A stretch of 64,000 nucleotides of DNA from an uncultured Gemmatimonadales bacterium (GTDB lineage Bacteria; Gemmatimonadota; Gemmatimonadetes; Longimicrobiales; RSA9), in the NCBI GenBank assembly GCA_963708135.1, contig OY970192.1, positions 3,040,001 through 3,104,000 of the forward strand, in the 5' to 3' direction. The notes under the pieces are model-generated. The model was given only the letters and a program-made list of their open reading frames with translations, made no database searches and was not told the DNA's origin. Below are positions 27,988 through 56,059 of this stretch, piece after piece. The first letter of the stretch is position 1, and every line of letters starts with the position of its first letter. The position numbers were made by a program, and so were the translations under genes.

Positions 27988-28356
27988 GGAATGCGCTGGA
28001 GCGCTGAACAGCAATGATGTGCTCCGCCGCCCCGCCCCGGTTCCAGCGGCTTTGCGTTCGCGGTGCGATCGACGTCCCCGGCCGGGACGGGTCGGACCGA
28101 CAGGAGCTGGTGAGTCGCCGTGCTTGCGCCGGCTGCGGTTCGGCAGCGAGAGAGATTAGGGGCGTCGCCGTCGACTTTCGACCGTTCCAGGGTTGCACGG
28201 CTTCGGCCGGACAGGAGAGGCGCACTCCAGATAACAGAGCGGTGACCGCTGCGCCGCCTGGGCGGCTTGCCCGCCGGGGGAGCGGTGGCGGCGTTTAGCA
28301 ACACAACATGGGCCGGCGGGACACGGCGCTGCGCGCCGCGTCGGTAACCGCGAAAC
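27981..28356 (+). repeat. ORF-less cassette type A, copy 1
   Basis: 376 bp; GTTATCTGGAATGCGC...GCGCACTCCAGATAAC plus attC-like site. Confidence 0.9.
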
Positions 28357-28363
28357 GTTATCT
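28229..28363 (+). other. attC-like site, family 1 (representative; specific to ORF-less cassettes)
   Basis: AGATAAC-agaGCGGTGACCG...GGGACACGGCGCtgcGCGCCGCGTCGGTAACCGCgaaac-GTTATCT. Confidence 0.85.
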
Positions 28364-28732
28364 GGAATGCGCTGGAGCGCTGAACAGCAATGATGTGCTC
28401 CGCCGCCCCGCCCCGGTTCCAGCGGCTTTGCGTTCGCGGTGCGATCGACGTCCCCGGCCGGGACGGGTCGGACCGACAGGAGCTGGTGAGTCGCCGTGCT
28501 TGCGCCGGCTGCGGTTCGGCAGCGAGAGAGATTAGGGGCGTCGCCGTCGACTTTCGACCGTTCCAGGGTTGCACGGCTTCGGCCGGACAGGAGAGGCGCA
28601 CTCCAGATAACAGAGCGGTGACCGCTGCGCCGCCTGGGCGGCTTGCCCGCCGGGGGAGCGGTGGCGGCGTTTAGCAACACAACATGGGCCGGCGGGACAC
28701 GGCGCTGCGCGCCGCGTCGGTAACCGCGAAAC
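28357..28732 (+). repeat. ORF-less cassette type A, copy 2
   Basis: Tandem copy, apparently identical to 27981-28356. Confidence 0.9.
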
Positions 28733-28750
28733 GTTAGAAGACATGCCGGG

Positions 28751-28782
28751 TTGACGGGCGGTGGTACTGAGTACTATAGTAC
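28751..28782 (+). promoter_or_regulatory. Cassette-internal promoter/operator of a TA module
   Basis: TTGACG-N18-TATAGT overlapping the perfect palindrome GTACTATAGTAC. Confidence 0.6.
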
Positions 28783-28818
28783 GGAGGACGTTGAAGCCGG
28801 GAGGCTCGTATCGAATTC

Positions 28819-29139
28819 GTGGCAACCCGCAGCTTCGAGAGCTCCGCGAAGAAGCTCCTGTCCGAAGAGGACCGGAGGCAGCTTGAGTTGCTCCTGCTGG
28901 GAGATCCACGACATGGCAAGGTGATTGAGCGCACTGGCGGTTTCCGGAAGGTGCGCTTCGCTCGACCCAGCCGGCGTGAAGGGAAGAGCGGCGGTACTCG
29001 GGTGATCTACTATCTCCTCGATCGACGTGACCGGATCTACCTGCTCCTCGTGTACGCGAAGGGGGTGAAGGACACCCTCACCCGCACCGAGGAGAACGAA
29101 CTTCGGAAGCTGGCAAAGGCATTGGAGGAAGAACGGTGA
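28819..29139 (+). CDS. RelE/HigB-family toxin
   Basis: GKVIERTGGFRKVRFA...GKSGGTRVIYY...IYLLLVYAKGVKDTLT. Confidence 0.88.
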   Translation: MATRSFESSAKKLLSEEDRRQLELLLLGDPRHGKVIERTGGFRKVRFARPSRREGKSGGTRVIYYLLDRRDRIYLLLVYAKGVKDTLTRTEENELRKLAKALEEER

Positions 29140-29516
29140 CCAAGGCACGGAGGAAGGGTACGTTCGGGCAGGTGCTCATCGAGTCCGCAAGAGAGGCGGT
29201 GCAGATCGAGCGCGGTGAGGCACCCCCGGCTCGTGTCACCAAGCACACGGCTGCGGAAACGAGGGTGGCACCTCCGCCTCAATACGTGCCGGAACGTATC
29301 AAGGGAATCCGGGATGTCATGGCATTGTCCCAGCCTGTCTTCGCTGCGGCCTTGAATGTGAGTCCAGAGACAGTCCGCGCTTGGGAACAGGGGAAGAGGG
29401 AACCCGACGGCCCTACGCTTCGACTCCTCAAGGTAGCGGAGCAGCACCCCGAGGTGCTCCTTACAAAAGTGCGGGCCCGAAGGTCGAGGAAACGGCCCAG
29501 CGCCGAGATCCGGTAA
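29136..29516 (+). CDS. HTH (XRE/HigA-like) antitoxin
   Basis: LSQPVFAAALNVSPETVRAWEQGKREPDGP; 4-nt overlap with the toxin. Confidence 0.88.
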   Translation: MTKARRKGTFGQVLIESAREAVQIERGEAPPARVTKHTAAETRVAPPPQYVPERIKGIRDVMALSQPVFAAALNVSPETVRAWEQGKREPDGPTLRLLKVAEQHPEVLLTKVRARRSRKRPSAEIR

Positions 29517-29558
29517 CGTGCCTTGGAATGACGCGGTCAGCGTCATGGCCGGCACGTC

Positions 29559-29673
29559 TTCTAACACACGGTGAGCGCCTGCGCGGCTTCGCTCCGGCCC
29601 TTCGGGACACCGAATCCTCAGCGCCGCGTTGCGGCGCCACCGGTTCGGCGTCGCTCACCTGGAAACGTTATCC
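29559..29673 (+). other. attC-like site, family 2 (representative)
   Basis: TTCTAAC-acacGGTGAGCG...GGGACACCGAATC...GGTTCGGCGTCGCTCACC-tggaaac-GTT. Confidence 0.85.
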
Positions 29674-30043
29674 GGAATGCGCTGGTGCGCTGGGGAGTGA
29701 ACCTCTTGTTCCCCTCCCCGCCCCGGATCCAGCGGTTTCGCGGGACCGGTGCAATCGATGATCCTGGCACACCGGGTTCGCGAGGCAGCAGCTGGTGAGG
29801 CGCCGGGCGCATCGTTCCTGTATCCGCGGCGTCGAGAGCCCGGCCGGAGTCGAAGCGTTTGTCGGCGCTGAGTTCCGGGCCGCGCCCGCCTTCCGCTGGA
29901 GGCGGAGGGGCGCACTCCGGATAACAGAGCGGTGGCCGCTGCGCCGCCTTCAGCGGCTTGCCCGCCGGGTGAAGTGAAGTCGTAGGCTGAGAACACGGGC
30001 CGGCGGGACGCGGCGCTGGGGGCCGCGTCGGCAACCGCCAGAC
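29667..30043 (+). repeat. ORF-less cassette type B, copy 1
   Basis: 377 bp; GTTATCCGGAATGCGC...GCGCACTCCGGATAAC. Confidence 0.9.
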
Positions 30044-30420
30044 GTTATCTGGAATGCGCTGGAGCGCTGAACAGCAATGATGTGCTCCGCCGCCCCGCCC
30101 CGGTTCCAGCGGCTTTGCGCTCGCGGTGCGATGGACGTTGACGGGCCGGGATGCGTCAGAGGAGGCAGGAGCTGGTGAGGCGCCGTGCGTCGGCCCGCCG
30201 GTGCGGTTCGGCAGCGGGGCACGTGCAGGTCGCCGGCGGCGAGTTGCGACCGTTCCAGAGTGCACGGCTGTGGCAGGACGCGAGAGGCGCACTGCAGATA
30301 ACGGAGCGGTGACCGCTGCGCCGCCTTCGGCGGCTCGCCCGCCGGGTGAAGTGAAGTCCAAGCCCGAAAAGATGGGCCGGCGGGACACGGCGCTGCGCGC
30401 CACGTCGGTAACCGAGAGAC
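30044..30420 (+). repeat. ORF-less cassette type C, copy 1
   Basis: 377 bp; first ~75 nt shared with type A, then diverges. Confidence 0.9.
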
Positions 30421-30797
30421 GTTATCTGGAATGCGCTGGAGCGCTGAACAGCAATGATGTGCTCCGCCGCCCCGCCCCGGTTCCAGCGGCTTTGCGTTCG
30501 CGGTGCGATCGACGTCCCCGGCCGGGACGGGTCGGACCGACAGGAGCTGGTGAGTCGCCGTGCTTGCGCCGGCTGCGGTTCGGCAGCGAGAGAGATTAGG
30601 GGCGTCGCCGTCGAACTTTCGACCGTTCCAGGGTTGCACGGCTTCGGCCGGACAGGAGAGGCGCACTCCAGATAACAGAGCGGTGACCGCTGCGCCGCCT
30701 GGGCGGCTTGCCCGCCGGGGGAGCGGTGGCGGCGTTTAGCAACACAACATGGGCCGGCGGGACACGGCGCTGCGCGCCGCGTCGGTAACCGCGAAAC
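30421..30797 (+). repeat. ORF-less cassette type A, copy 3
   Basis: 377 bp; 1-nt insertion relative to copy 1. Confidence 0.9.
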
Positions 30798-31154
30798 GTT
30801 ATCTGGAATGCGCTGGAGCGCCAAACAGCTGATGTGGTCCCCGCCCCGCCCGGTTCCAGCGGCTTTGCGCTCGCGGTGCGATGGACGTTACGGGCCGGGA
30901 TGCGTCCGAGGGGGCAGGAGCTGGTGAGGCGCCGTGCGTCAGCCCCGCCGGTGCGGTTCGGCGGCGGGGCACCTGCAGGTCGCCGGCGGCGAGTTGCGGC
31001 CATTACAGAGTGCACGGCTGTGGCAGGACGGGAGAGGCGCACTCCAGATAACGGAGCGGTGACCGCTGCGCGCTTGGCGGCTGCGCGGGTGAAGTGAAGT
31101 CAAGCGAAACGAGGGGGCGGGACACGGCGCTGCGCGCCGCGTCGGTAACGAAAC
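30798..31154 (+). repeat. ORF-less cassette type C, divergent copy
   Basis: 357 bp with many small deletions relative to 30044-30420. Confidence 0.8.
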
Positions 31155-31531
31155 GTTATCTGGAATGCGCTGGAGCGCTGAACAGCAATGATGTGCTCCG
31201 CCGCCCCGCCCCGGTTCCAGCGGCTTTGCGTTCGCGGTGCGATCGACGTCCCCGGCCGGGACGGGTCGGACCGACAGGAGCTGGTGAGTCGCCGTGCTTG
31301 CGCCGGCTGCGGTTCGGCAGCGAGAGAGATTAGGGGCGTCGCCGTTGAACTTTCGACCGTTCCAGGGTTGCACGGCTTCGGCCGGACAGGAGAGGCGCAC
31401 TCCAGATAACAGAGCGGTGACCGCTGCGCCGCCTGGGCGGCTTGCCCGCCGGGGGAGCGGTGGCGGCGTTTAGCAACACAACATGGGCCGGCGGGACACG
31501 GCGCTGCGCGCCGCGTCGGTAACCGCGAAAA
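31155..31531 (+). repeat. ORF-less cassette type A, copy 4
   Basis: Matches type A; downstream GTT core is missing (CGCGAAAAAACCGCCAT). Confidence 0.85.
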
Positions 31532-31595
31532 AACCGCCATGTTCCGCTCGGCCTTTTGTAGCAGATTTGGGGTGATAACGACAAAGGGAGATTCC

Positions 31596-32100
31596 ATGGC
31601 GAGCGTACGATCGAGGAACTGCTGAAGTTGTGTGGGGAGCGAATCCAGCTGGTCGAAGATCTCTGGGATAGCATGCTGGGACGGAGGGATTTCCGCTCTG
31701 AGGCACAGAAGGCCGAGCTGGATCGCCGGTTAGAGGAGCACAGGGCGGATACGGATAGCGGTGCCTGGGAAGAGGTTCGTGAGCGGCTGTACAAGAAGTA
31801 CGGGTGAGTAGCGAGTTCGTTGTCCGCCTCAGGCAGAAGCAGAACTAGATGAGGCTGCGGCTTGGTATTCTGAGCGTTCGAGGGGATTGGGAGCAGAGTT
31901 CGTTCGAATAGTCGATGCCGCGTTCGCGGCGATACAGAGAAATCCGCTACAGTTTACAGTTGTACACAGACAAGTGCGGCGGGCGGTGCTTAGAAGATTT
32001 CGATACGAAGTTCTCTACAAAGAATAAGAAAAGGAGATAGTTGTGCTTAAGGTCTAACACTAGAGGAGTGATAAGAAGAGATGGCAGAGAAGAGGCTGAG
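31596..32100 (+). pseudogene. Addiction-module antitoxin plus ParE-like toxin, frameshifted
   Basis: Fragments ERIQLVEDLWDS, EAQKAELDRRLEEH, WEEVRERL; AELDEAAAWYSERSRGLGAEF...IQRNPLQF...VRRAVLRRF. Confidence 0.7.
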
Positions 32101-32327
32101 GGACTACAGGTGCAGACAGAACAAGGCGGTTAACAAACGGTTGGCGCCTGCGCGGCCTGCGGCCGCTCCGGAGAACGCGCCGCGGCGGTCTAGAAGCTGG
32201 TGAGGGATCGTGTAGTTTCGAAGGTGGTCGCGCGCTGAGGGTTATAGGCGCGGCGGGTCGCCAACCTGGAAACGTTATCTGCCAGCCCTTGGGATGCTTG
32301 AGGCATGTAAGATCCTTGAGGAGAGCC

Positions 32328-32773
32328 ATGAAGACCTACGAGATTCACCGTCGTCATAGAGCGGGACGAAGATGGCCGATTTGTGAGCTATCGTGACTGC
32401 GACTTTGCAGGGCTGCTACACGGAAGGCGATACGGAGCGAGAGGCTACGTGATCTGATTGAGGCGCGATCCGGCTTCACCTTGAGGATCGACTCGAGCGA
32501 GGATGAGCAATCCACCAGGAGGTGGGCAGCACGAGGGTACGGATCGCGGTATGACGCGCCTGCCTTCCATGACCGCGCAGAAGATGGTGCGAGCTCTTGG
32601 AGCGGCATGGCTTTGAGCGAGTTCGGCAATCAGGATCCACACCTCATCCTCCGCCACACGGTACGGACGCCGCGTCACCGTCCCCGTGCATAAGTCCAAG
32701 GACCTCGGTCGCGAGTCTTCTAGAGCCGGATCAAGAAAGGTACGCGTACCTCTCGATAGAAGACCTCTAATAG
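32328..32773 (+). pseudogene. Indel-ridden copy of the hicB-hicA cassette at 40798
   Basis: Colinear with 40856-41292 but with many 1-2 nt indels. Confidence 0.8.
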
Positions 32774-33014
32774 GTCGAACGGGCCGGCGTTTAACTAACG
32801 TTTGGCGCCTGCGCGGCCTGCGGCCGCTCCGGAGAACCCGCCGCGGCCGCCGGGAAGCTGGTGCGTTTCGTAGAGGTTTCGAAGGTGATCGCGCGCTGGA
32901 GGTTGTTGCGCGGCGGGTCGCTAACCTAGAAACGTTATGCGATCATTGCCTCGGGTTGGTGGTGCAGACGCCCTCGCCGGTTGTGATCATGTCAGGTATG
33001 ACATAGATTGAACC

Positions 33015-33365
33015 GTGAGATCGAGCGAGAAGCCGCTGGTCTGGATGCATGGGGAGGTCAAGACGCCTCCCTTCAGCGTAGGCGCGCGAATCGAGGCCGG
33101 GGTCCTGTTGCGGCGACTACAGAACGGCGAAACGCTTGGGCTGCCGCACTCTCGACCGATGCCGGTGATCGGCTCCCAATGTCACGAACTACGGATTCGA
33201 GACGAGGATCACACGTGGCGGATCATTTACCGGATCGATCCCGATGCGATCGTGATCGCGGAGGTGTTCAGCAAGAAGACTCAGCAGACGCCCAGGGCCA
33301 CGATCGAGGTGTGCAAGAGGCGGCTGAAGGCGTACGATCGGATAGACGAGGAGCAGGATGGATAA
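33015..33365 (+). CDS. RelE/ParE-superfamily (Gp49-like) toxin
   Basis: KPLVWMHGEVKTPPFS...LPHSRPMPVIGSQCHELRI...WRIIYR...FSKKTQQTP. Confidence 0.85.
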   Translation: MRSSEKPLVWMHGEVKTPPFSVGARIEAGVLLRRLQNGETLGLPHSRPMPVIGSQCHELRIRDEDHTWRIIYRIDPDAIVIAEVFSKKTQQTPRATIEVCKRRLKAYDRIDEEQDG

Positions 33366-33804
33366 GGGAAAGAGGAAGAGGCTCGAGGCGGCTGGTTGGA
33401 AGGTTGGCTCTGCCGAGGAGTTCCTGAACCTCGACGACGCTGAGGCGGCGTTCGTCGCGCTCAAACTCCGCCTGAGCGAGGAGCTGCGGGAGCGGCGAAC
33501 GAAGGAGGGATTGTCGCAAGTCGAGCTGGCGAAGCGGATTGGTTCGAGTCAGTCCCGAGTTGCGAAGATGGAGGCGAGTGATCCCACAGTGTCCGTGGAT
33601 CTGCTCCTGAAGGGGTTGTTCGCGACGGGCGCGACCCAGGATGAAATTGGTGGAGCGATCGCGAAGGGTCGCCGAGGCGTGCAGGCACGGCAGGCGCCCG
33701 AGGCAACGCGGCATAACAAGACGGTTACCGCGGCGGCGCACCTGCGGTGCGCCTTGCCCTCCGCTTCGCTCCGGGACGCCTCGCCTTCGGCTCGGTGTCG
33801 GTAA
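33358..33804 (+). CDS. XRE-family HTH antitoxin (3' end runs into the attC; true end uncertain)
   Basis: KRLEAAGWKVGSAEEFL...LSQVELAKRIGSSQSRVAKMEASDPTVSVDLL. Confidence 0.8.
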   Translation: MDKGKRKRLEAAGWKVGSAEEFLNLDDAEAAFVALKLRLSEELRERRTKEGLSQVELAKRIGSSQSRVAKMEASDPTVSVDLLLKGLFATGATQDEIGGAIAKGRRGVQARQAPEATRHNKTVTAAAHLRCALPSASLRDASPSARCR

Positions 33805-33886
33805 CGCTGAAACGTTATCCGGCATGTTCCAGGCAGCGCTTCTGTAGCAGATAGAGTTAGGGAGAACGCCGGACGAAGGAGGTCGC

Positions 33887-34360
33887 GTGTCGAAGGTTCC
33901 GATCAAGGAGCTGCTGGAGCTGTCGGTGGCAGAACGGATCAGCTCATATGACTGTGGGAGAGAGAGGTCGCTGACTCGGAGGGGGTCTCGATCAGTGAGG
34001 CTCAGTTGCAGGAAGCTCGGCGTGTATGGAGGAGCATTGTGCGGATCGGGCTCGCGATCTGGGAGCAGCTTCGGCGGGAGTTGTGAGAGAGATACGGATG
34101 AACGGGAGTTGATGTTGGTTTTGGCGCGTTGGATGTGCTGGAGGCGATAGAGTGGTACTCGGGTAGATAGAGATGGCGCTGAATTGTGCGAGTGCTTGAT
34201 GCTGCGTTGAATAGATTCAGCAGAATTGGCTTAGTTTCAGTGGTGGACGCTTGATTGGAAGCTGGTGCTCGTTCTACAAGATTGTTTACGGCTGACGAAC
34301 GAGAGATTGTGATTCTGTGGTTTTATGTGAGAGAGATAAGGCACTGGAGAGGTGGAAGTG
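33887..34360 (+). pseudogene. Heavily degraded addiction-module antitoxin plus ParE-like toxin
   Basis: MSKVPIKELLELSVAERI start, then fragmentary similarity to the 31596 module. Confidence 0.55.
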
Positions 34361-34519
34361 AGGAGCTCAGGGTGAGGTTGAACACGCGGATAACAAACGG
34401 TTGGCGCTGCGCGGTTGCGGCGCTCGGAGAATGCGCAGCGTCTGGAAGCTGGTGAGGTGATGCAGTTTCGAAGGCATGGCGCGCTGAAGGTATGGCGCGG
34501 CGGATCGCTAACTGGAAAC

Positions 34520-34892
34520 GTTATCGGAATGCGCTGGTGCGCTGGGGAGTGAACCTCTTGTTCCCCTCCCCGCCCGGATCCAGCGGTTTCGCGGGACCGG
34601 TGCGATCGATGATCTTGGCACACCGGGTTCGGAGGCAGCAGCTGGTGAGGCGCTGGGCGCATGTTCCTGTATCCGCGGCGTCGAGAGCTCGGCCGGAGTC
34701 GAAGCGTTTGTCGGCGCTGAGTTCCGGGCCGCGCTCGCCTTCCGCTGGAGGCGGAGGGGCGCACTCCGGATAACAGAGCGGTGGCCGCTGCGCCGCCTTC
34801 AGCGGCTTGCCCGCCGGGTGAAGTGAAGTCGTAGGCTGAGAACACGGGCTGGCGGGACGCGGCGCTGGGGGCCGCGTCGGCAACCGCCAGAC
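34520..34892 (+). repeat. ORF-less cassette type B, copy 2
   Basis: 373 bp, near-identical to 29667-30043. Confidence 0.88.
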
Positions 34893-34944
34893 GTTATAGG
34901 ACATTTTCCACGTTGGTCTCCCATCTGAGCAAGGAAAGTCATCG

Positions 34945-35736
34945 ATGGCTTTGAAACCCTGTCGCGAGTGCTCGCATAAGATCAGCACCGAGGCCAATTC
35001 ATGCCCGAATTGCGGAGCTAAAAATCCGACAGGATCGAGAATCTCCGCGAAACAGGGATGCCTCGGCTGCCTAGGACTAATCGTTCTTATGGTCATTATG
35101 ACGTCTCTAATCAATACGTGCGGGTCCGGTTCCACCCCGTCATCAAGCGTGATGTCGCACTCTAGAGTGAACCCGTCGGTCAATCCCGACAGTGTTTGGG
35201 CCGCCGGTAATGCCTCACAATTAGGCTCACTGTCTCGACGCGATTCAATGAGGTATGACCATATCACACGCACGACTGGCCTCACGCCAGCTGAGCCCAA
35301 ATTCCATGAACGCGTTGTCGCGATGCGAATTGCAGACGCGCGAGACGCGTCGAAGCGTCCTGAATCCAGGGGAGACGCGTTGACCTTCCTATCACTTGCA
35401 GACACTCCATTTACTTCCACACAATCCGCCGCGATCAAGTCTTTGCGCACATTGATATCGGCGTCTATAGATCGTGACACTAGGAAGGCGGGCATCCCGC
35501 TTCGCCGCGCCTATGCGGCGACGTTGAGAAACAAATTTCTCGACGACGCTCTTGATATTAAGGTTTCCGCACTCGGCGACGACGCGACTACGCTGAAACT
35601 TGAATTCGTCCTGTTCAATGACGTGTGGAGTCACAAGCTAGTAACCGGGGAGTTCCAGCAGTTGCTTCGCCAGATGGGATTCAAGCGGCTTCGGATGACG
35701 GACGGGTACGACTGGGGATACTACTGGGATCTATAG
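34945..35736 (+). CDS. Zinc-ribbon domain membrane protein (cassette gene)
   Basis: MALKPCRECSHKISTEANSCPNCG then a TM helix; lower GC than the flanks. Confidence 0.8.
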   Translation: MALKPCRECSHKISTEANSCPNCGAKNPTGSRISAKQGCLGCLGLIVLMVIMTSLINTCGSGSTPSSSVMSHSRVNPSVNPDSVWAAGNASQLGSLSRRDSMRYDHITRTTGLTPAEPKFHERVVAMRIADARDASKRPESRGDALTFLSLADTPFTSTQSAAIKSLRTLISASIDRDTRKAGIPLRRAYAATLRNKFLDDALDIKVSALGDDATTLKLEFVLFNDVWSHKLVTGEFQQLLRQMGFKRLRMTDGYDWGYYWDL

Positions 35737-35919
35737 CCGGCCACGCGAGACATTCGCACGATGGAAAACGTCCTATAACTGGACAATTGCCGCAGAGCCC
35801 GCCGGGATTGAGACCACGCGGCATTTAATAGGTAGGCCGGACGGGACATGACTCCGCTCAGGCGCGAGATCGCGTTGCTCACTCGCTTCCTCGCTGCGTC
35901 ACGTCGGCAATCGCTTAAC

Positions 35920-36297
35920 GTTATCTGGAATGCGCTGGAGCGCTGAACAGCAATGATGTGCTCCGCCGCCCCGCCCCGGTTCCAGCGGCTTTGCGCTCGA
36001 GGTGCGATGGACGTTGACGGGCCGGGATGCGTCAGAGGAGGCAGGAGCTGGTGAGGCGCCGTGCGTCGGCCCCGCCGGTGCGGTTCGGCAGCGGGGCACG
36101 TGCAGGTCGCCGGCGGCGAGTTGCGACCGTTCCAGAGTGCACGGCTGTGGCAGGACGCGAGAGGCGCACTCCAGATAACGGAGCGGTGACCGCTTCGCCG
36201 CCTTCGGCGGCTCGCCCGCCGGGTGAAGTGAAGTCCAAGCCCGAAAAGATGGGCCGGCGGGACACGGCGCTGCGCGCCACGTCGGTAACCGAGAGAC
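35920..36297 (+). repeat. ORF-less cassette type C, copy 3
   Basis: 378 bp. Confidence 0.9.
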
Positions 36298-36336
36298 GTT
36301 ACGCGCCATACTGCGGGTGAAAAGTGGGGTCTTACA

Positions 36337-38224: not shown

Positions 38225-38283
38225 GTTATGTGAAATCGCCCGGAGGCCGCTGAACCCGCTGCGGTTGAGAGACCCCACCTGAC

Positions 38284-47259: not shown

Positions 47260-47558
47260 CGATCCTCCTTGGGAGGAGATGATACCCGTGCCGGGGTGGG
47301 CAGTTCAAGGAGAGCGTGGGTGTCGTGGAGCGAGAGGTTCCGGGTTTGCGGGCCGGCGGATAACAAACGGTTGGTGCCTGCGCGGCCTGCGGCCGCGCCG
47401 GAGAACCCGCCGCGGCCGTCTGGCAGCTGGTGAGTCTGTCGCAGTTTCGAAGGCGGCCGCGCGCTGGAGGCTGTAGTGCGGCGGGTCGCCAACCTGGAAA
47501 CGTTAGCCGAAACCGCGAAAGCGGGAGGACAGGGTGGACCAGGTCCAAGGTGGGGCGG

Positions 47559-47587
47559 TTGACGGCATGTAGTCGGTAGGATACACT
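47559..47587 (+). promoter_or_regulatory. Sigma70-type promoter of the addiction-module cassette
   Basis: TTGACG-N17-TACACT, 6 nt before the ATG. Confidence 0.7.
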
Positions 47588-47853
47588 TGAGCTATGATCG
47601 AAGTACGCAAGACGGAGCTCTTTGCTGGCTGGATCGACGGGCTGAAGGACGTCCGGGGGCGAGCCCGTGTGCTGGCGCGAATCGAGCGCCTTGCGGCGGG
47701 CAACCCCGGGGATGTCCAACCGGTTGGCGAAGGGGTTTCGGAGCTACGAGTGGATTATGGCCCAGGATATCGGGTGTACTACAGAAAGCGTGGGCAGAAG
47801 CTGATCATCTTGTTGGCCGGAGGGGACAAGAGCACACGGGCGAGAGATATCAA

Positions 47854-49614
47854 CCTCCCGTATTCACCACGCGTAGGTTGAGCCGATTGAGCGCGTGATT
47901 TGGAATTCGGCGGCGGCGTGCGTGGCGCCCGGGCTGATTACGGGGACAGCCCCCCTTTCCCCCGGCGCGCCGCCGACGGCTCCGTGCTCCGATCGCTCCC
48001 CGCCCGAGAAGGCCTACGCTGGAGTGGGCAGGGCCAGGGCGGCGGGGGAGCCGCGGGCCGAGTAGCGCCGGCTCATTTCTCGCCAGAAGCGCTGCCACAG
48101 GTGCGCGCGGCCCGCGTCGATGACGAGCGTGAGTCGTCGGCCGCTCACCAGCACGCGTCCCGCCGCTTTGAGCACGAGTTGGCGGAAGCGCTGGCGGGTC
48201 ATGACCTGACGTTCGCCGCACGAGACCAGTTCTGCGCCAGCTCTCAGCAGGTTGGCCGCGATGAGGCTCAGCAGCAGGCGCGCCTCGTTGGCGCCGAAGC
48301 TGTCGGTGTCGGGCTCGGGCGTGGCGACGCTCCGCCCGCGGTAGTGCTTCTTGGGCCGCGGCGCCGACGAGAGCGCCAGCGCCAGCGTGCTTTTCCAGTC
48401 CCCGAACTCCCGCTCGGCTTCTCCCCGCGCCCGGTAGCGCTCCAGCAGCGCCGGGCCGTCTACCTCTTCGGTGCTCGCGTTCGTGAGCAGGAAAAAATGG
48501 TCGAGGAACAGCTCCCCCTGCTCGTCCGAGCGCTCCAGCATCACGAGCACCACCCGGCGCGCATGGTCCCAGCGCCCGGCAGCATAGGTCAGCTCGTGCG
48601 TCCAGATCCGACCTTCGGCCGGCGGGTGTCCAGGCGGCCGCTTCAGGTACGGCGCCGCGAGTCTCTCCAGGCGTGCATTCCCACGCAGCCGGGCCACGTA
48701 GCGCACGCCCTCGTCCTCCAGCGTGGCCAGCAACTCGTTCTCCGGGAATCCCGCATCCATGCGCAGCCACACCTGCTCCGCCTGCGTCTTCGCCCAGAGC
48801 ACCGCGGGGACCACAAAGCCCAGCGCGCCTTGCGCCGTGTGCGCGTTTCCCTCTCGCAGCTCGGCCGCCAGGAAGTCTCCCAACTCCCAGCGCAGCACCA
48901 GCGGGTGGTAGCAGCAGCAGCCATAGTGCGCGTTCCACGAGCTGCCCGGCTGCAGCCCGTGCACTTCGACCGGCAGCGAATCCAGATCCAGCGTGACCTC
49001 CGCAACGCGCGGCGCGTTCCGGCCCCGCCGCCGCTCCGCACCCCGCAGCAGGAGCGTGGAAAGGCCCTGCCGGTTTCCCGGGTCGGCCAGCACCGCCAGG
49101 AGCCGCGACAGGGTTGGCTGAGAGGCCAGCCCGGAGGCCGCGCCCGCAGCCCCACCCCGCACCGGCGCCGTCCCCCGGCGCCGCGACACGGCCACGCGCA
49201 GCGCCGGATCGGCGCGCAGCAGGTCCGCATCCCGCTGGTCCGTCCATCCCTGCGCCAGCAGGAGCACCTGCGTGAGCATCAGCTCGAGGAAGTCGTGCGT
49301 GATCCGCGCGGGGTCGCGCGGGTCGTGCAGGTGGTGGTGGACCAGCGCCGGGAAGCCCAGCCGCTCCAGCAGCGCACGCAACAGCACCGCGCCCGCGTCC
49401 GAGGTCAGCCGCTCCGGTCGCGCCTCCACGCCCATCGAACGGTTGAAATCCAGCCGGAAAAGTGTACCTTGTTCTTCACCCATGGCGTGTTTGTCGTGTG
49501 GTCCGGAAGGATGGTTTGGTTTGCACCCCCATCTTACGGTCACACAGGCAGATGCGCCATGGGCGCTTACGCCCTACACAACCCCTCCACTAACCCGCTC
49601 GTGAATACGGCAGG
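47854..49614 (-). mobile_element. IS1380-family insertion sequence
   Basis: TIRs CCTCCCGTATTCAC / GTGAATACGGCAGG; 5-bp target duplication ATCAA. Confidence 0.9.
48014..49483 (-). CDS. IS1380-family transposase
   Basis: LTSDAGAVLL, LASQPTLSRL, TLDLDS, CYHPL, LRMDAGF, YRARGEAE. Confidence 0.88.
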   Translation of the reverse strand: MGEEQGTLFRLDFNRSMGVEARPERLTSDAGAVLLRALLERLGFPALVHHHLHDPRDPARITHDFLELMLTQVLLLAQGWTDQRDADLLRADPALRVAVSRRRGTAPVRGGAAGAASGLASQPTLSRLLAVLADPGNRQGLSTLLLRGAERRRGRNAPRVAEVTLDLDSLPVEVHGLQPGSSWNAHYGCCCYHPLVLRWELGDFLAAELREGNAHTAQGALGFVVPAVLWAKTQAEQVWLRMDAGFPENELLATLEDEGVRYVARLRGNARLERLAAPYLKRPPGHPPAEGRIWTHELTYAAGRWDHARRVVLVMLERSDEQGELFLDHFFLLTNASTEEVDGPALLERYRARGEAEREFGDWKSTLALALSSAPRPKKHYRGRSVATPEPDTDSFGANEARLLLSLIAANLLRAGAELVSCGERQVMTRQRFRQLVLKAAGRVLVSGRRLTLVIDAGRAHLWQRFWREMSRRYSARGSPAALALPTPA

Positions 49615-49660
49615 ATCAAGGCGGCTCTCCGCCTGGCGCGCAATCTGGAGGAGTAGGATC

Positions 49661-49960
49661 ATGGCGAAGACTGTCACGAGCCGGTACGACGTAGCGGAGC
49701 ACCTCCGGACGCCGGAAGAGATGGCCGCGTATCTGGAGGCGTGTCTCGAGGAGGCGGACGGTGATGCGGCGTTTGTCGCCAAGGCGTTGGGCGACATTGC
49801 TCGAGCCAGAGGTATGAGCCAAGCGGCTCGCGATTCAGGCCTGTCGCGGGAGAGCCTCTACAAGGCCTTATCTGGGGAGCGCACGCCTAGCTTCGATACG
49901 ATACTCAAGGTCGTCGGCGCACTTGGGCTGAAGCTCCATGCGGAGGCTGCGCAGGGCTGA
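49661..49960 (+). CDS. Addiction-module antidote HTH protein
   Basis: YDVAEHLRTPEEMAAYLEA...ALGDIARARGMSQAARDSGLSRESLYKALS. Confidence 0.9.
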   Translation: MAKTVTSRYDVAEHLRTPEEMAAYLEACLEEADGDAAFVAKALGDIARARGMSQAARDSGLSRESLYKALSGERTPSFDTILKVVGALGLKLHAEAAQG

Positions 49961-50122
49961 TAGGTCCGTCGTGACGCGGCTTCGGCTAATAGACGTTATG
50001 TGAAATCGCTTTGGGTCGTGCATGGAGCCCATGGACGGTAGGTTGAGGTCCCAGTAGCATGAATGCCCAGAGTCGCCAGTCACGGCGGCGGGCTGCCACA
50101 ACCAGGAGTCGAGTGCTTCGAC

Positions 50123-50812
50123 ATGGAGCGCAGATATCAGGATCACGAAATCCGGCAGATTCTCGATCTAGCCATCGATGAGGGAGACGCTCCTGCAGAG
50201 TCTCTTCCTGTGATCGATGGTTTGACCCTTCGTGAGTTGCAGGAGGTGGGGCGCGAGGTTGGGTTGCCTGAAGGTCGTATCACGCAGGCAGTCGCGGCAT
50301 TCGAAGCGCATGGGATATCGGTGCCTCGAGGCACCACCCTCGGATTGCCAACTTCCGTCGGTAGCATCGTGGCCCTCCCTCGTAGCCCATCTGAGCGAGA
50401 GTGGGAGCTGCTCATCGCCGAGTTGCGCACGACGTTTGGCGGAAAGGGCGTCGCGACCTCGTATGGTGGTCTGCGAGAGTGGTCACAGGGGACTGTGCAC
50501 GCGTTTGTCGAGCCAACCGAGACAGGACATCGGTTGCGATTGGCGGATTCGCGGATGACGGCGGTGGGCGGGATCGGTCTAGGAGGTTTCTTCTTGGCAT
50601 TTGCCCTCCTAATCCTCGTTGTTCTGCTCGGCAAGGACGACCCAGGCGTCAGATTCGCCGTTCCGGCGTTCTTCTCTCTGATCGGCGGTAGCCTGATCGC
50701 GGGAAGCGTGGTGGCGTTACCCAGGTGGGCCCGCGAACAAGAGAACCGCATGGCGCACATCAGCAGCCGTGCAGTATCACTGCTTGCCCCACCTGGACCG
50801 GCGGGGGAATGA
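50123..50812 (+). CDS. Hypothetical membrane protein (cassette gene)
   Basis: MERRYQDHEIRQILDLA...GLTLRELQEVGREVGL; two C-terminal TM helices. Confidence 0.7.
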   Translation: MERRYQDHEIRQILDLAIDEGDAPAESLPVIDGLTLRELQEVGREVGLPEGRITQAVAAFEAHGISVPRGTTLGLPTSVGSIVALPRSPSEREWELLIAELRTTFGGKGVATSYGGLREWSQGTVHAFVEPTETGHRLRLADSRMTAVGGIGLGGFFLAFALLILVVLLGKDDPGVRFAVPAFFSLIGGSLIAGSVVALPRWAREQENRMAHISSRAVSLLAPPGPAGE

Positions 50813-51288
50813 GCGCGCTGGCCAGTGCTCTTCAGGAGCGCATCGCGGGAAACAAGGGGAACGGATGAGGGGCATGGCCGCGCGCGAGCACGCGAAATCA
50901 CATAACAAGAGAGTTGCGCCTGCGCGGCCTTCGGCCGCTCCGGAGAACACCGGCGCTGAAATGGTGCTGTTGGAAGCGGCGGTAGATATCGTTGACGATC
51001 GCAGCCTCGTCGGGACGTGAGGACGCGCCGGCGTCGCAACTCAAAGAACGTTAAGCGCCATTGGCCGGCAAGAATGAATGATTAAAGCGTGAAGCGGGAC
51101 AAAACAATCGCCTTCCTTTTCCTCCCCGCGCTTTGGGTACCGATTGCTTCGCAAGAGAGCATTCTCATCGTCGCATGAAGTCAAAGGGACGATTCCTCAG
51201 AAAGCGCCCGTCATTGACCCCTATATTTCACGAGAGTACTCTGGTCCCAAGACGACGTAACCAGGATCTCACCAGCCGGCAGTGCAAA

Positions 51289-52668
51289 ATGACTCGTGTG
51301 TCACGGTACATCATCCTCTTCGTCATCCTGAGCTTCTGCCGGCAGGGACGCACGCTCGCGCAAAGCGCACCCCACGACTGGGCCTACCTTGATCCGGTCT
51401 CTGACTCCGTCGTGGGCATCAGTCTCTTCAAGGCGTATGCTCATCTCGGGGTCAGGCCGCACACAACCGTGATTGTCGCGATCATCGACAATGGGTTCGA
51501 CATCGAGCATCCGGATCTCAAAAGAGTCATCTGGACTAACCCGCGGGAAATCGCGGGCAATCATATAGACGACGATCACAATGGTTATGTCAACAATGTG
51601 CACGGCTGGAATTTCCGTTCTTCGCCCGACGGTGAACTCGCCGAGAACGACCAGATGGAATCAACGCGAATCTATGCACAATGGAGAGGCCGATTCGAGG
51701 CCGCCGACACAGGCGGTATGATCCCGGAGGTCAGACGGCAGCTGGATTTATACCGCACAGCGAAACAGGCATACCTCGAGAAACTGAAGGGTGAGTTGAC
51801 CGAGGACGAGCGAGAGTTCGCATACAACGCAGAATATGATCCGAGCCGGATCATCGGTGATCATGCCACAGATCCGACCGAGAAATCCTATGGAAGCCGT
51901 TCCATGAGGCTGACTCCGCAGCTTACGCACGGCACTCACGTGGCCGGCATCGTCGCAGCGGATCGCACGAATGGTGTCGGTGTAATGGGTGTCGCTGACC
52001 ATGTACTCATCATGCCTGTAGTTGCGACTACCGCTGCCGGTGACGAGCGCGACAAGGATGTCGCCAATGCGATCCGGTACGCCGTTGATAACGGCGCACG
52101 CATTATCAACATGAGCTTTTCGAAGATCTTGTCGCAGTACAAGTGCGTCGTTGATGATGCAGTACGGTATGCGGAGGCGAACAATGTTCTGATCATCCAC
52201 GCCGCCGGCAACGACGGACAGAACGACGATTCCGTGCCACATTATCCGACAGCTGATTTCTGCACCGGCGGAAGGGCAAAGAATTTCATCACGGTTGGCT
52301 GGAGCAGAGCGAAGTTTGACGAACGACTCGCGCACCCTTATTCCGACTTTGGAGCACACACCGTAGATATCTTCGCGCCGGGTAGCGATATCTATTCGAC
52401 AGTGCCCGGAGGGTATGACTACAAATCGGCCAGCAGCATGTCTACTGCGTTTGTTTCGGGTGTGGCGGCGCTGCTGCTTTCCTACTTTCCGGACCTCTCG
52501 GCTGTGCAGCTTAAAGACTTGATCCTGCAATCGGCGTTCAAGCCGGACGTGCTGGTGAACAAGCCCGGCACCAACGAAAAGGTTCCTTTTCGCAGCCTGT
52601 CGGTGAGCGGTGGCATCGTCAACGCTGGTGCCGCGGTAAGGTTGGCGCTACAGCGCTATGAGCATTGA
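51289..52668 (+). CDS. S8 (subtilisin) family serine peptidase (cassette gene)
   Basis: VAIIDNG, HGTHVAGIVAA, HAAGNDG, VDIFAPG, variant Ser motif ASSMST. Confidence 0.88.
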   Translation: MTRVSRYIILFVILSFCRQGRTLAQSAPHDWAYLDPVSDSVVGISLFKAYAHLGVRPHTTVIVAIIDNGFDIEHPDLKRVIWTNPREIAGNHIDDDHNGYVNNVHGWNFRSSPDGELAENDQMESTRIYAQWRGRFEAADTGGMIPEVRRQLDLYRTAKQAYLEKLKGELTEDEREFAYNAEYDPSRIIGDHATDPTEKSYGSRSMRLTPQLTHGTHVAGIVAADRTNGVGVMGVADHVLIMPVVATTAAGDERDKDVANAIRYAVDNGARIINMSFSKILSQYKCVVDDAVRYAEANNVLIIHAAGNDGQNDDSVPHYPTADFCTGGRAKNFITVGWSRAKFDERLAHPYSDFGAHTVDIFAPGSDIYSTVPGGYDYKSASSMSTAFVSGVAALLLSYFPDLSAVQLKDLILQSAFKPDVLVNKPGTNEKVPFRSLSVSGGIVNAGAAVRLALQRYEH

Positions 52669-52939
52669 CACATTCTCAGCAATCGTTGCCTCGACCGGTC
52701 GCGCCTGCAGCCGATCTCGGTTGAGTATCACGCTCCCGTTCAGGGTAGCGCTGAGCGCTGGATGTCGCGAAAGGTCGTCAAACGTAGCGGAATCGATCTC
52801 TTGATCTCCAACACGGCGGCGTTGCCGGACCGGCCAGCGGCGAGCCTAACGGCAGATAATAGACGTTATACGCCATGCGCCTACCCTGGCGGATAGGCGC
52901 AGAAGCATACGCGAACAGGACCGGAGGCTGGGAATCTAC

Positions 52940-53225
52940 TTGCGAGCGGGTGGGGCAGGCATTCCGTAGAGCATGCCGTGCACGCTGATGTCCTCGTCCA
53001 CATCGGGCCAGTGGATGCCCTGGCCGGCACCAATGAGGCGATAGTTGCCGCGTTGCTCCGGCGTAGCCTGCGATAGGCGCCAGGACCACGCGAGTGCTCA
53101 TTCCACGCCTCACGGATGAGAGCGAGATTGGCTTGGATTACCCCGCGGATTCGGTTTAGCTCCTTGGGGGAGAACGCATAGGACGAGGCCAGCGTCAGCG
53201 GTTCGAGCCAGAACTTAGGGCCAAG
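52940..53225 (-). pseudogene. Remnants of a DUF4160 / DUF2442 TA-like pair
   Basis: KFWLEPLTLASSYAFSPKELNRIR...EAWNEH and ATPEQRGNYRLIGAGQGIHWPDVDEDISV. Confidence 0.7.
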
Positions 53226-53245
53226 TGTTGGCGTTCCAAAGCAAA

Positions 53246-54615
53246 GAGGTATCTCCAGAAGGTGTGGAAACGAGCAGAAGGCGGTGACACCTTTCGGTTG
53301 AGCCATCAACCACGGGCCTCGTGCCGGCACGAAAGGAGCCACCGCCGTGTCAAAGGTAACCAAGGAAGCGTCCTCGTCGTCAAGCGTGATATGGGGACAG
53401 CTGGAGGGCTTTGCCCGCGAGCAGGTTCAGGTATTCGTCCAGCGGCTGCTCGAGGAAGAGATCGAAGGGCTCCTGGGCCGGCGGAAGTCGGAGCGGCGAG
53501 AGCCCGGATCGGAGCCGGTCTAGCGGAACGGCTACGGCAAGGCGCGTAGGCTGGCGTTGTCGAACGGCACGATCAAGGTTCGGCGCCCGCGGGTCCGAGG
53601 GCTGGAAGAGCGGTTCGAGAGCCGAATCCTTCCGCTGTTCAAGCGGCGCACGGAGGAAGTCAGCCATCTCCTGCCCCAGCTCTACCTGCACGGGCTGGCG
53701 CTCGGCGACTTCGAGCTCGCGCTGAGGGGGCTGCTGGGGGACGCTGCTCCCCTTTCGGCTGCTTCGATCGCTCGGCTGAAGGCGCAGTGGCAGCTCGAGT
53801 TCCAGGAGTGGCGGAGCCGTTCGCTGGCCGAGCTCGACATCGTGTACTGCTGGGCGGATGGCCTGTACGTAAAGGCCGGCATCGACGACGGCAAGGCGGC
53901 GCTCCTGGTGATCATCGGTGGGACCCGCGAGGGCGAGAAGGTCGTGCTCGCCGTGGAGAGCGGGCAGCGGGAGTCGCGCGAGTCGTGGCTGGGCGTACTG
54001 CGCGACCTGAAGGCCCGCGGCATGAACGCGCCCCGACTCCTGGTCGCCGACGGCCACCTGGGCATCTGGGCCGCGGGCGCCGAGATCTGGCCGCGGTGCG
54101 AGGAGCAGCGCTGCTGGAATCACAAGATGGTCAACGTGCTGGACCAGGTTCCGAGGAAGCAGCAGGCGGCCGTCCGCCAGCACCTGAGAGGAATGATGTA
54201 CGCCGAGAGCAGGGCTGAGTGCGAGAAAGCGCGTGACCGGTGCGTGAAGCAGTTCGAGCGGCTCTACCCCAAGGCGATGGCGGCGCTCAAGCGGGACTGG
54301 GAGCGGATGGTCACCTTCTTCTCCTTCCCCCACGAGCACTGGGTCCACCTGCGCACCACCAACATCGTCGAGTCGCCCTTCGCCTCTGTGCGGCTCAGGA
54401 CCACGGCCGCAAAGCGCTACACGCGGGTCGAGAACGCCACGGCGTTGATCTGGAAGCTGCTCCTCGTAGCGGAGAAGACGTTCCGGCGGCTCAACGCCGC
54501 ACACCTGCTCGCTGCCGTTTCCGCGGGCGCAAAGTAGGTCGACGGCATCCCCGTCACCAGTCAGTCCGAAAGGGCCGCCGCCTGACGCCGTTTACACACC
54601 TATTAACGTGACCTC
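53246..54615 (+). mobile_element. IS256-family element; transposase carries in-frame stop(s)
   Basis: Imperfect TIRs GAGGT...GGTGTGGAAACG / CGTTTACACACC...ACCTC; motifs WADGLYVK, LLVADG, QRCWNHK, HLRTTNIVES; TAG at 53521; no target duplication seen. Confidence 0.85.
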
Positions 54616-54663
54616 ATACTCTGACTCAATTGGCCTACGACTTTGTCTCTGCTAACCTCCTTC

Positions 54664-55779
54664 ATGGCCGAAACCATCCGCTCCGTACTGAGCGCACCGT
54701 ATCCGCCGGGAAGCCGCTTTCAAACCCGCGGCGAGCTGTACCGCTTCGCCCTGCGCCTGTTCTTCCTTTTGGTCGCCCTTGTCGCACCCATCATGTTCCT
54801 CCGGGCCAACTGGAGCCGCACCGGATGGGATCGAGACACCGTGCCCATTCACGTGGCTGCGCGGCGGATCCAGGACGGCAAGCCCCTCTACCCGGGTCCG
54901 AGCGGTTACACTCCGCTGAGGCCCGCTCTGGTTGGAGATCGCCTGGCCTACCCGCCGTTTCTGCCGGCGGCAGTTTCGTGGGCGGCGGACAGAGATTTCC
55001 CGGCGTTCACCCGCTTATTCTACGTTGCCGACCTGCTCGCCGTGCTCGTCTACGCGATCGCGCTGGCACGCATTGCAACCGGGCGCGTGCGGCCTCTGGA
55101 CGTCGGGGTGGCCGCGGGGGCGGTCTTCGCTAGCCCGCTGGCCCTTGGGGCGATGTCCATGGGCAACCCGGAGCCCATTCTCTGGGCTCTCTACTCCCTC
55201 GCGATCGCGTTCCCGGTATTTCGCGGCGCCGGGTTTCTGATGGCAGGCTCAGTGAAGCTGTTCGGGTTCTGGCCTCTGGCGGTGGCAGCCGTTCGAGATC
55301 GACGACGGACTCTGATCTCTGCCTCCGTTGCCGCGCTCGCCCTCGCCGCTCTAGGAATCGGCGTTCTCGGCGCTCCAGGGCTGCTTCAGGCGATGGTCAA
55401 CTGGTTCCGCTACTCCATGCCGGAGAGCGCGCAGGGGAGTTTCTTCTACGCGAACGTCTCCGTCAGCTTTGCCGTGGTGCGACTGGCTCGCCACCTCGGG
55501 TGGCAATACACCGGTGGTCCCCTTCCATTACTCGCAAGGATATGGCTCTTCGGCGCGGGCGTGACGGCCCCGCTCGTCACGGGCTGGATGACCCGTAATC
55601 GGAGCACGGATGTCCAATGCGCCGCTGTGCTCGTGGCGGCCCTGGCCTTTTCACCGATCTGCTGGTCGGAATACTCAGCCGTCCTTCTTCTACCCGGGGC
55701 CCTCTGGCTCCGCGTCCGCGCGCGGCTCCCGGAGCCGGAGCCCGCACAGGTGCCGCCCGAATCGGTCTATCATATCTGA
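54664..55779 (+). CDS. Polytopic membrane protein, glycosyltransferase family 87-like
   Basis: AARRIQDGKPLY, LAYPPFL, MGNPEP, SVKLF, FSPICWSEY; many TM segments. Confidence 0.65.
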   Translation: MAETIRSVLSAPYPPGSRFQTRGELYRFALRLFFLLVALVAPIMFLRANWSRTGWDRDTVPIHVAARRIQDGKPLYPGPSGYTPLRPALVGDRLAYPPFLPAAVSWAADRDFPAFTRLFYVADLLAVLVYAIALARIATGRVRPLDVGVAAGAVFASPLALGAMSMGNPEPILWALYSLAIAFPVFRGAGFLMAGSVKLFGFWPLAVAAVRDRRRTLISASVAALALAALGIGVLGAPGLLQAMVNWFRYSMPESAQGSFFYANVSVSFAVVRLARHLGWQYTGGPLPLLARIWLFGAGVTAPLVTGWMTRNRSTDVQCAAVLVAALAFSPICWSEYSAVLLLPGALWLRVRARLPEPEPAQVPPESVYHI

Positions 55780-55945
55780 ACACCGCTGCATGGCAGCAGA
55801 TGGCGGCGAACTTGCTCCACGGCCGCCGTGGCGACACCGCGCGGCCGTTGCCATAAGCGCGCCGCTGCCACCCCGCGTGCCCAGGGACACGGCGACGGCA
55901 GCTCGTAAGCAACGGGCTCAAAGCAAACGGATTACGGCGCACGGC

Positions 55946-56059
55946 GTACAACACGAGCGTTCCCGCTGCGCTCGCGTTCGCTCGCTTGCCGCTTCGCGGA
56001 CACCCCTGCGCTTCGCTTCGCGCCGCTGCGGGGTGTCGGGAACGCCTGGAACGTTCTAT
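55946..56059 (+). other. Last attC-like site of the array
   Basis: GTACAAC-acgaGCGTTCCCG...GGACACCCC...GGGGTGTCGGGAACGC-ctggaac-GTTCTAT. Confidence 0.78.

Follow-up and report, generated by a model that had tools for sequence, protein, structure and literature searches.

A cassette array in an uncultured Gemmatimonadales bacterium that probably forms an integron-like platform without the integrase insertion and without extrahelical bases in its sites

Integron integrases are defined, and detected by software, through an insertion that reads the flipped-out bases of folded cassette sites. The stretch of DNA analyzed here (the window: 64,000 nucleotides of contig OY970192.1, from an uncultured soil bacterium of the Gemmatimonadales) raises the question of what a large array of cassettes can be when both the insertion and the bases are missing. 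The G+C content, about 72% for the window, drops to 58-69% across 28-56 kb, where repeat finding yielded families of 90-150 nt repeats on the + strand, starting with ...TAAC, ending with ...AACGTTA, and spaced by 0.36-5 kb. Thirty sites were placed between 28232 and 56058, all on the + strand (28 whole, one truncated, and one split by an IS630-like insertion sequence element). They delimit about 30 cassettes, all on one strand and each terminated by a site, beside a tyrosine recombinase gene, which is the arrangement expected of an integron. The open reading frames of the cassettes, likewise on the + strand, include many toxin-antitoxin pairs (RelE/HTH, Gp49/HTH, DUF4258/DUF2283, MNT/HepT, and HicA). 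With a stricter site signature, 24 of the 30 matches in the whole genome fall within the array; an Rfam scan of 26-58 kb gave no family match. The locus is likely to be a sedentary integron-like cassette platform, in which the I2 insertion of the integrase and the extrahelical bases of the sites are both absent.

The sequence-only reading that drew attention to the sites was incomplete in that it missed the adjacent, co-oriented recombinase gene, the product of which lacks the IntI-specific insertion (I2), some 40 residues long. This protein combines SAM-like and catalytic domains, and R198, K226, H288, R291, H314, and Y323, which stand in invariant columns, are all present. The IntI model TIGR02249 matches it with 216.9 bits (cut-off 265) in two pieces, 6-178 and 235-315 of 315, leaving 179-234 unmatched, and in the comparison with VchIntIA (2a3v), residues 237-260 (24 residues) stand opposite residues 174-239 of the chain (66 residues). 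The gap between the GKGxKDR and HxLRH motifs measures 59 residues, similar to the 58-65 found in 69 relatives of at least 280 aa and the 65-68 of the genome's own Xer proteins, versus 100-102 in five canonical IntI. Integron integrases are reportedly recognized, by IntegronFinder and by Messier and Roy, by an IntI-specific additional domain of about 35 residues near patch III, and the window recombinase does not possess it. The protein aligns end to end with XerA (4a8e, 5hxy), and scores 225.5 with NF040815, for which the cut-off is 220. Downstream of the gene, two CGAAATTCG palindromes precede the first crossover (27981/27982), at which the array starts, 122 nt past the stop codon.

The layout proposed for the sites from the letters alone was found again: TAAC, 3-4 nt, a stem of 8-10 bp, C(C)TGCG, and, directly next to the closing stem, a G(G/A)AC...GTC hairpin. 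From TAAC to GTTA, the sites measure 88-151 nt and fall into three sequence families of about the announced size, plus three singletons. The L stems of family A (GGTGAGCG/CGCTCACC; six sites) and family C (GGTTGGCG/CGCCAACC; seven sites and the split one) pair without a bulge, as had been noted, while that of family B (GCGGTGACC/GGTAACCGC; 12 sites and the truncated one) keeps a 1x1 G.A mismatch. The near-invariant GTCG-N13-GTT was observed in 25 of the 28 whole sites; the distance is 14 nt in the last one, and the motif is shortened or altered at 31049-31158 and 34391-34523. In a looser form (GTCG-N12-15-GTT), it is matched 51 times in the window versus 34.6 +/- 5.8 times after shuffling, and none of 100 shuffles reaches 51.

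The R''/R' boxes of attC sites read RYYYAAC / GTTRRRY. The inverted repeats of an attC site, R''/R' and L''/L' with an unpaired spacer, are present in the window, as TAAC/GTTA and the 8-10 bp L stem. An attC site also carries two or three extrahelical bases on its R''-L'' arm (PMC2727003; this and the other papers are cited from excerpts of their text). Folding was performed with DNA parameters, the TAAC/GTTA pairs being forced and the closing helix walked, and a bulge was counted when 1-2 nt were one-sided on the R''-L'' (5') arm within 24 bp. In these predicted folds, the 27 window sites folded display an R box of 4 bp, a loop of 3-4 x 5-7 nt, and 8-9 pairs leading into a multiloop; extrahelical bases are lacking, with a one-sided bulge on the 5' arm in only one site.

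The control consisted of 80 sites from 14 canonical IntI loci of the same phylum, all downstream of intI and co-oriented with it. Behind an R box of 4-5 bp and a spacer commonly of 2x5, their 5' arm carries single-base bulges separated by 6 bp; 77 of these sites have a bulge, and 61 have two. The pipeline thus detects extrahelical bases in canonical sites, and its predicted folds of the window sites lack them. The closing stem has a median of 12 pairs in the window, versus 32 in the controls, 51 of which end in a plain hairpin. Sequence marks differ in the same comparison: TCG lies 17-23 nt before the site end in 27/28 window sites, 57/114 sites of relatives (described below), and 3/80 canonical ones, TAACA starts the site in 21/28, 99/114, and 35/80, respectively, and [AC]C precedes GTTA in 26/28, 101/114, and 18/80. 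The proposal of a distinct attC-like class without the classical extra bases is upheld; a bulge is also infrequent in the relatives' sites (12/114). The asymmetry of the spacer has the same sense in the window sites and in the canonical ones (the latter commonly 2x5), and the idea that it might be a mirror image of the canonical one was abandoned.

One premise of the sequence-only reading had to be given up, namely that canonical attC sites are unbranched. The terminal structure of the Vibrio cholerae repeat (VCR) is called branched (PMC2727003), and 29 of the 80 controls form a multiloop. Shuffled interiors branch too, with multiloops in 126/135 cases for the window and 470/570 for the relatives. 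Since both the canonical VCR and shuffled interiors are branched, branching is not class-defining, and selection on it was rejected on the shuffling result. Arms directly next to L' are more frequent in the window sites than in their shuffled versions (14/27 vs. 28/135), but not in the sites of relatives (24/114 vs. 131/570). For the second arm, two-sided changes were seen (GC<->CG at positions 6-9 among 14 distinct variants), and the recurrent A.C mismatch was located at position 4 in seven of these 14; a sliding control was weak, as on average 8.46 of 10 pairs form in register, versus 8.04 and 7.69 after a shift by 1. The first arm of the window sites also varies on both sides (GCGGC/GCCGC, GCAGC/GCTGC, CTCGC/GCGAG, and CGGCC/GGCCG).

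Bottom-strand folding, also suggested earlier, was supported in part. The folding of both strands with DNA parameters, which had been recommended, predicted a multiloop in all 27 sites on either strand. The bottom strand is the more stable one in 98/114 relatives' sites, 58/80 canonical sites, and all six family A sites, but in just 11 of the 27 window sites; total folding energy was, therefore, discarded as a strand indicator in the window. In unconstrained folds, the bottom-strand z-score was more negative in four out of four sites.

Several observations bear on how the units would move. Two copies of one RelE/HTH toxin-antitoxin cassette, 99% alike, are located at 28734-29670 and 39068-40004, the first behind a family B site and the second behind a family A site; the spacer before CGTTA travels with the upstream site, and the downstream cassette keeps what follows GTTA. 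In 18/27 window sites and 38/70 relatives' sites, the five nucleotides preceding TAAC are complementary (5/5) to the beginning of the site's own cassette, versus 4/27 and 8/70 for the beginning of the next cassette, a match that, judged from the sequence, would be the signature of circularizing units. In addition, a soil metagenome contig (run X1; 1242 nt, depth 8.5, 16 differences/889 nt) joins 33805 to 40793. It appears to derive from a related strain whose cassettes follow a different order. The joint falls in the crossover region, and its two flanks have too little sequence in common for repeat-driven misassembly. The metagenome data are assembled contigs from three soil runs, and other joints were set aside: 27984->32145 (side 21) and 42622->46750 (side 31) are too short to rely on, and 47397->41348 is a possible switch between like sites. 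Taken together, the duplicates, the R'' flank, and the contig order point to circularizable units with a crossover at G|TT of R', as in integrons. Finally, among 136 sites found by their sequence marks without folding (TAACA ... [AC]CGTTA, in 42 loci), 73% have an L-stem complementarity of at least 7/8, versus 2.9% of cross-locus pairings, which shows that intrastrand pairing of the sites is under selection.

These data bear on the alternative of a real platform working through double-stranded exchange of the Xer/dif kind within the conserved AACGTTA, the hairpin potential being incidental. The palindrome AACGTT is common to nearly all sites, the enzyme resembles XerA over its whole length, as seen above, and IntI itself keeps a double-strand activity on attI x attI (PMC4792948). 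Nevertheless, such an exchange would need neither the L''/L' complementarity nor the R'' flank match, both of which are strongly kept despite sequence variation, and as the sequence to the right of GTTA varies from cassette to cassette, there is no conserved right arm. It is, in our view, quite unlikely.

The association of insert-less recombinases with such sites extends beyond this genome. Relatives of the window recombinase (39-56% identity) were collected from 80 loci in Bacillota, Bacteroidota, Ignavibacteriota, Spirochaetota, Gemmatimonadota, Chloroflexota, Latescibacterota, and one Undinarchaeales archaeon. Sites of the same design number 138 in the 300 kb downstream of these genes, versus 36 in the 617 kb upstream, and the downstream ones comprise 114 co-oriented (3' spacer longer), 15 opposite, and nine symmetric sites. 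The contigs of 24 of the 80 relatives end less than 350 nt past the gene. Downstream DNA of 3 kb or more is available for 36 loci, of which 33 have at least one co-oriented site and 25 two or more. Within the phylum of the window, the downstream counts are 22, 11, and 4 for loci L152, L156, and L155, respectively. Most relatives have an attI-like site 50-200 nt past the stop codon, consisting of palindromic repeats in a pair and a subsequent (A/C)GTTA. At a Spirochaetota locus (L068:17276-20162), six further sites in the opposite orientation were noticed 3 kb past a first array of nine sites.

Some observations weigh against a cassette platform served by the insert-less enzyme. Three of the 36 loci with long downstream DNA (L034, L039, and L057) have no co-oriented site, and L154 has no site in 13 kb. 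The site finder needed an 8-mer with at most one mismatch near the R box and could under-detect bulged sites beside insert-less genes, although bulged canonical sites were found. The bottom strand is the stabler one in only a minority of the window sites, as given above. Recombination is a prediction from the sequence, and the X1 joint lies in a related strain's assembled metagenome contig, not in reads. One genome (G224) holds seven near-identical copies of a 297-aa insert-less relative (e.g., C1:652502-653335), with no attC-like sites within 10 kb downstream at the two loci inspected (L157 and L158), and part of the recombinase family may belong to other, multi-copy mobile elements. These copies speak for a further explanation, in which the window recombinase would be part of an independent mobile element that landed at the edge of the array, such as an insertion sequence whose accessory tyrosine recombinase targets cassette sites. 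The gene is, however, single-copy in its genome, its upstream neighbor is a peptidase S15 gene and not a transposase gene, it is followed by the attI-like site and the first crossover, and the gene, attI-like site, and co-oriented array recur together in relatives. An origin of this kind is very unlikely.

A third explanation is that of an ordinary integron array that lost its integrase (a cluster of attC sites lacking integron integrase, CALIN), built by a canonical IntI, with an unrelated recombinase next to it. Canonical IntI are indeed common in the phylum (TIGR02249 above cut-off in 124/301 genomes, including three unpublished ones), and their arrays are likewise downstream of intI and co-oriented with it. 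The genome itself carries a decayed intI, its sole canonical one, of which a frameshifted C-terminal remnant is left. This lies 196 kb away from the array, however, and a signature scan revealed no sites beside it. The remnant (G000:C1:2844021-2844534, minus strand) covers the C-terminal ~150 residues in two frames, abuts an FtsX-like permease gene, and retains part of the IntI-specific insertion. Moreover, the window sites differ from canonical ones in the very feature that IntI is said to read, as well as in stem length and in the TCG landmark, and the same site design follows an insert-less recombinase in 33/36 loci across phyla. The insert-less gene is present in 13/300 other genomes of the phylum, mostly in families with rare canonical IntI: a canonical IntI was counted in 128/194 genomes of families f4 and f5, against 1/194 for the insert-less gene, and in 2/47 genomes of family f2, against 8/47. 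The two genes are, thus, distributed almost in complement within the phylum, and a CALIN is very unlikely to account for the locus.

Under the preferred explanation of an integron-like platform, the locus is organized as the recombinase gene, an attI-like site about 120 nt past its stop codon, and some 30 same-strand cassettes, each ending in an attC-like site that must fold on itself. The folded site would consist of the R box (TAAC/GTTA), an asymmetric spacer (3-4 vs. 5-7 nt), an L stem of 8-10 bp of free sequence, and a long interior. Of this picture, the analysis shows the anatomy, the limits of the cassettes, selection on intrastrand pairing, the lack of I2, and the presence of this combination in other phyla; the rest is inferred. 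Cassettes would be moved by the window recombinase, through strand exchange at G|TT of the 3' box in the manner of integrons. The bottom strand would serve as substrate, since tyrosine recombinases cut 5' of the spacer and the crossover is located on the 5' arm only on that strand. Polarity would come from the asymmetric spacer and from sequence landmarks, namely TAACA, ACGTTA, and a TCG set at constant distance, rather than from flipped-out bases. Removal of the extrahelical bases from a VCR leaves the unpaired spacer able to impose the strand choice (Bouvier 2009, PMC2727003, in the excerpts available), which makes a bulge-free site mechanistically plausible.

The position of the recombinase was addressed with two trees. 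In a quick tree of 91 rows (with one canonical row from an unpublished genome), Xer, canonical IntI, and the insert-less set each form one split (support 100, 100, and 94, respectively), and IntI and the insert-less set stand together, apart from Xer (support 100). For the second tree, which includes 47 insert-bearing representatives (50% identity clusters), the insertion and N-terminal columns were removed. The 57 insert-bearing rows form one clade (100) and Xer another (100), with zero insert-less rows within the insert-bearing clade; for the insert-less rows, the supports bearing on a sister clade versus a grade are 74 and 55. The insert-bearing representatives all issue from one query of this phylum, and class 1 or Vibrio integrases may be missing. 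On this sampling, the insert-less recombinases appear to lie outside the insert-bearing clade, yet nearer to IntI than to XerC/D.

According to the excerpts of Escudero 2016 (PMC4792948), I2 recognizes the extrahelical bases and blocks the second cleavage, and both features co-evolved; explaining how they arose is a chicken-and-egg paradox, which intermediates could resolve. The insert-less recombinases and bulge-free sites might be a working sister or stem lineage of integrons, with cassette capture by way of folded single-stranded sites predating I2 and the extrahelical bases; this is tentative, and we consider it rather doubtful. Such a lineage would represent the 'functional intermediary form' sought by Escudero et al., and would achieve strand choice and the block of the second cleavage by means of the asymmetric spacer and the fixed sequence landmarks.

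The recombinase also carries an N-terminal domain, with fold matches to the N-terminus of T4 UvsW (Z 5.8, root-mean-square deviation 2.1, 56 aligned), the N-termini of XPB (Z 4.0-4.5), and the HARP domain of SMARCAL1 (Z 4.2), all these Z scores being below the tool's caution level of 8. Its order of secondary structures fits the description of the HARP domain, a five-stranded sheet packed on two helices (PMC4666394). PF07443 reaches 11.2 bits on the window domain (E 0.28; cut-off 25 bits), and matches the domains of 9/11 relatives at E <= 10 (best 3.1e-6). Among the phylum's 28 canonical IntI, none has the HARP-like domain, which occurs in 50/80 relatives; some insert-bearing IntI have it (4/150 representatives with a custom profile, and 3/12 long ones with Pfam at E < 0.01). 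A role as a substitute for I2 that would read the branch was rejected, as the 30/80 relatives without the domain have equally branched sites (multiloops in 40/45 vs. 52/68). The domain is, hence, a lead and not an explanation of how the enzyme manages without I2. As a side observation, 82 of the 150 insert-bearing representatives (P0121-P0270) are at least 400 aa long, with N-terminal extensions of 100-180 residues; a few of these proteins have weak HARP matches, and most extensions have no Pfam family (12 proteins scanned).

Among known systems, sedentary chromosomal integrons with co-oriented cassettes ('inverted integrase'), including the canonical ones of the phylum, show the same succession of integrase gene, attI, and co-oriented cassettes. 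The crossover at G|TT, the AAC/GTT of R''/R', the toxin-antitoxin cassettes, the match of the R'' flank to its own cassette start, the asymmetric unpaired spacer (3x5 or 4x7 here), and an L box recognized by shape and not by sequence are all shared with canonical integrons. The differences reside in the missing I2 and extrahelical bases, the short closing stem, and the conserved landmarks TAACA, ACGTTA, and TCG. Long attC sites, such as the VCR, also exceed 100 nt and have a large, branched, and variable terminal structure, which is dispensable for the strand choice of the VCR (PMC2727003, excerpts). The VCR, however, has an L stem of 19-22 nt with three extrahelical bases before the branch, whereas the branch comes here after 8-10 uninterrupted pairs. 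XerC/D-dif and archaeal XerA share the SAM-like and catalytic core without insertion, as well as the NF040815 match. Unlike XerC/D, the window protein groups with IntI in both trees (support 100) and is found beside a cassette array instead of a single dif site, and unlike these enzymes and XerA, many of its relatives bear the additional HARP-like domain. An 'integron-like' subgroup of tyrosine recombinases in which the insertion is incompletely conserved has been reported (Smyshlyaev 2021, PMC8138268) and is probably the same protein lineage; the excerpts of that paper describe no sites or arrays for insert-less members. A full-text literature search, with subscription journals and preprint supplements outside its range, returned no paper on arrays tied to insert-less integrases.

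A large array in which the insertion and the bases are jointly missing has, apparently, been active recently, and the same kind of site is found beside related recombinases in Bacillota, Bacteroidota, Spirochaetota, Gemmatimonadota, Chloroflexota, and one archaeon. If these platforms work, integron-type gene capture would be much wider than surveys report, including in phyla thought to be nearly integron-free, because such arrays are scored as integrase-less or missed. Two natural systems could then be compared to test the role of I2 and the extrahelical bases, and a bulge-free, structure-specific recombination system would become usable. The combination of an insert-less integrase with bulge-free sites also bears on the origin of integrons.

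Table 1. Positions in the window of the recombinase gene, attI-like region, cassette array, and individual sites.
Feature	Position	Strand	Remarks
Tyrosine recombinase, 343 aa	26828..27859	+	Co-oriented with array; PF00589 + PF13495
HARP-like domain	26828..27031	+	Beta-beta-alpha-beta-beta-alpha; residues 1-68, pLDDT 86
attI-like region	27860..27984	+	Palindrome CGAAATTCG at 27936-27944 and 27962-27970, then AACG|TTA
Cassette array	27982..56055	+	Many toxin-antitoxin pairs; GC 0.58-0.69 vs. flanks 0.69-0.77
Site, family B	28232..28360	+	
Site, family B	28608..28736	+	
Site, family A	29562..29670	+	
Site, family B	29922..30047	+	L stem A-T to G-C swap
Site, family B	30299..30424	+	
Site, family B	30673..30801	+	
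Site, family B	31049..31158	+	Internal deletions; GTCG just 10 nt ahead of GTT
Site, family B	31407..31532	+	Truncated; ACGTTA end missing
Site, family C	32131..32277	+	
Site, family C	32792..32937	+	
Site, singleton	33714..33817	+	One extra G on 5' arm at base of L stem
Site, family C	34391..34523	+	Degraded; ATCG replacing GTCG
Site, family B	34771..34896	+	
Site, singleton	35776..35923	+	Arm 2 GACATGAC/GTCACGTC
Site, family B	36176..36301	+	
Site, family A	37026..37113	+	Shortest (88 nt)
Site, family A	37739..37850	+	
Site, family B	38103..38228	+	
Site, family A	38981..39070	+	
Site, family A	39896..40004	+	Duplicate of 29562-29670
Site, family A	40690..40801	+	
Site, family C	41311..42627	+	Split by IS630-like element
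DDE_3 transposase of IS630-like element	41473..42561	-	
Site, family B	42886..43004	+	
Site, family B	43256..43381	+	
Site, family C	43935..44081	+	
Site, family B	44333..44458	+	
Site, family C	46607..46755	+	Arm 1 CTCGC/GCGAG replacing CGGCC/GGCCG
Site, family C	47361..47505	+	
Site, family C-like	50903..51053	+	
Last site, singleton	55948..56058	+	CAAC-ACGA-GCGTTCCCG-CTGCG ... GGACACCCC/GGGGTGTC-GGGAACGC-CTGGAAC-GTTC; GTCG 14 nt before GTT

Other features of the array deserve mention. The IS630-like element (~41441-42620), the ends of which read GTGTAG(T/C)GTC, interrupts a family C site in its 3' spacer, where TA is duplicated. The last stretch between sites (51056-55947) extends over 4.9 kb, contains a subtilase S8 gene, a fragment of a Mutator-family transposase, and a GT87 glycosyltransferase, and may be a compound or disrupted cassette. 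The error-rich zone suspected earlier is real: over the ~400 nt of 31551-31964, a metagenome contig shows 12 A>C changes and seven inserted C relative to the window, which is probably due to an assembly error in the window record. A ParE/antitoxin-like cassette near 31407-31532 looks frameshifted by eye.

A family of cassettes of 357-378 nt is present in 12 copies, in 27982-31155 and then at 34521, 35921, 37848, 42625, 43002, and 44079; the opening 3.2 kb of the array holds eight of them, and three copies are identical. These cassettes have no conserved reading frame (the variants differ by indels of 1, 4, 7, and 11 nt) and no Rfam match, and their conserved islands, such as AGCTGGTGAG, are also present within family C sites. 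At L152, in another genome, a comparable run of ~343-nt units was observed.

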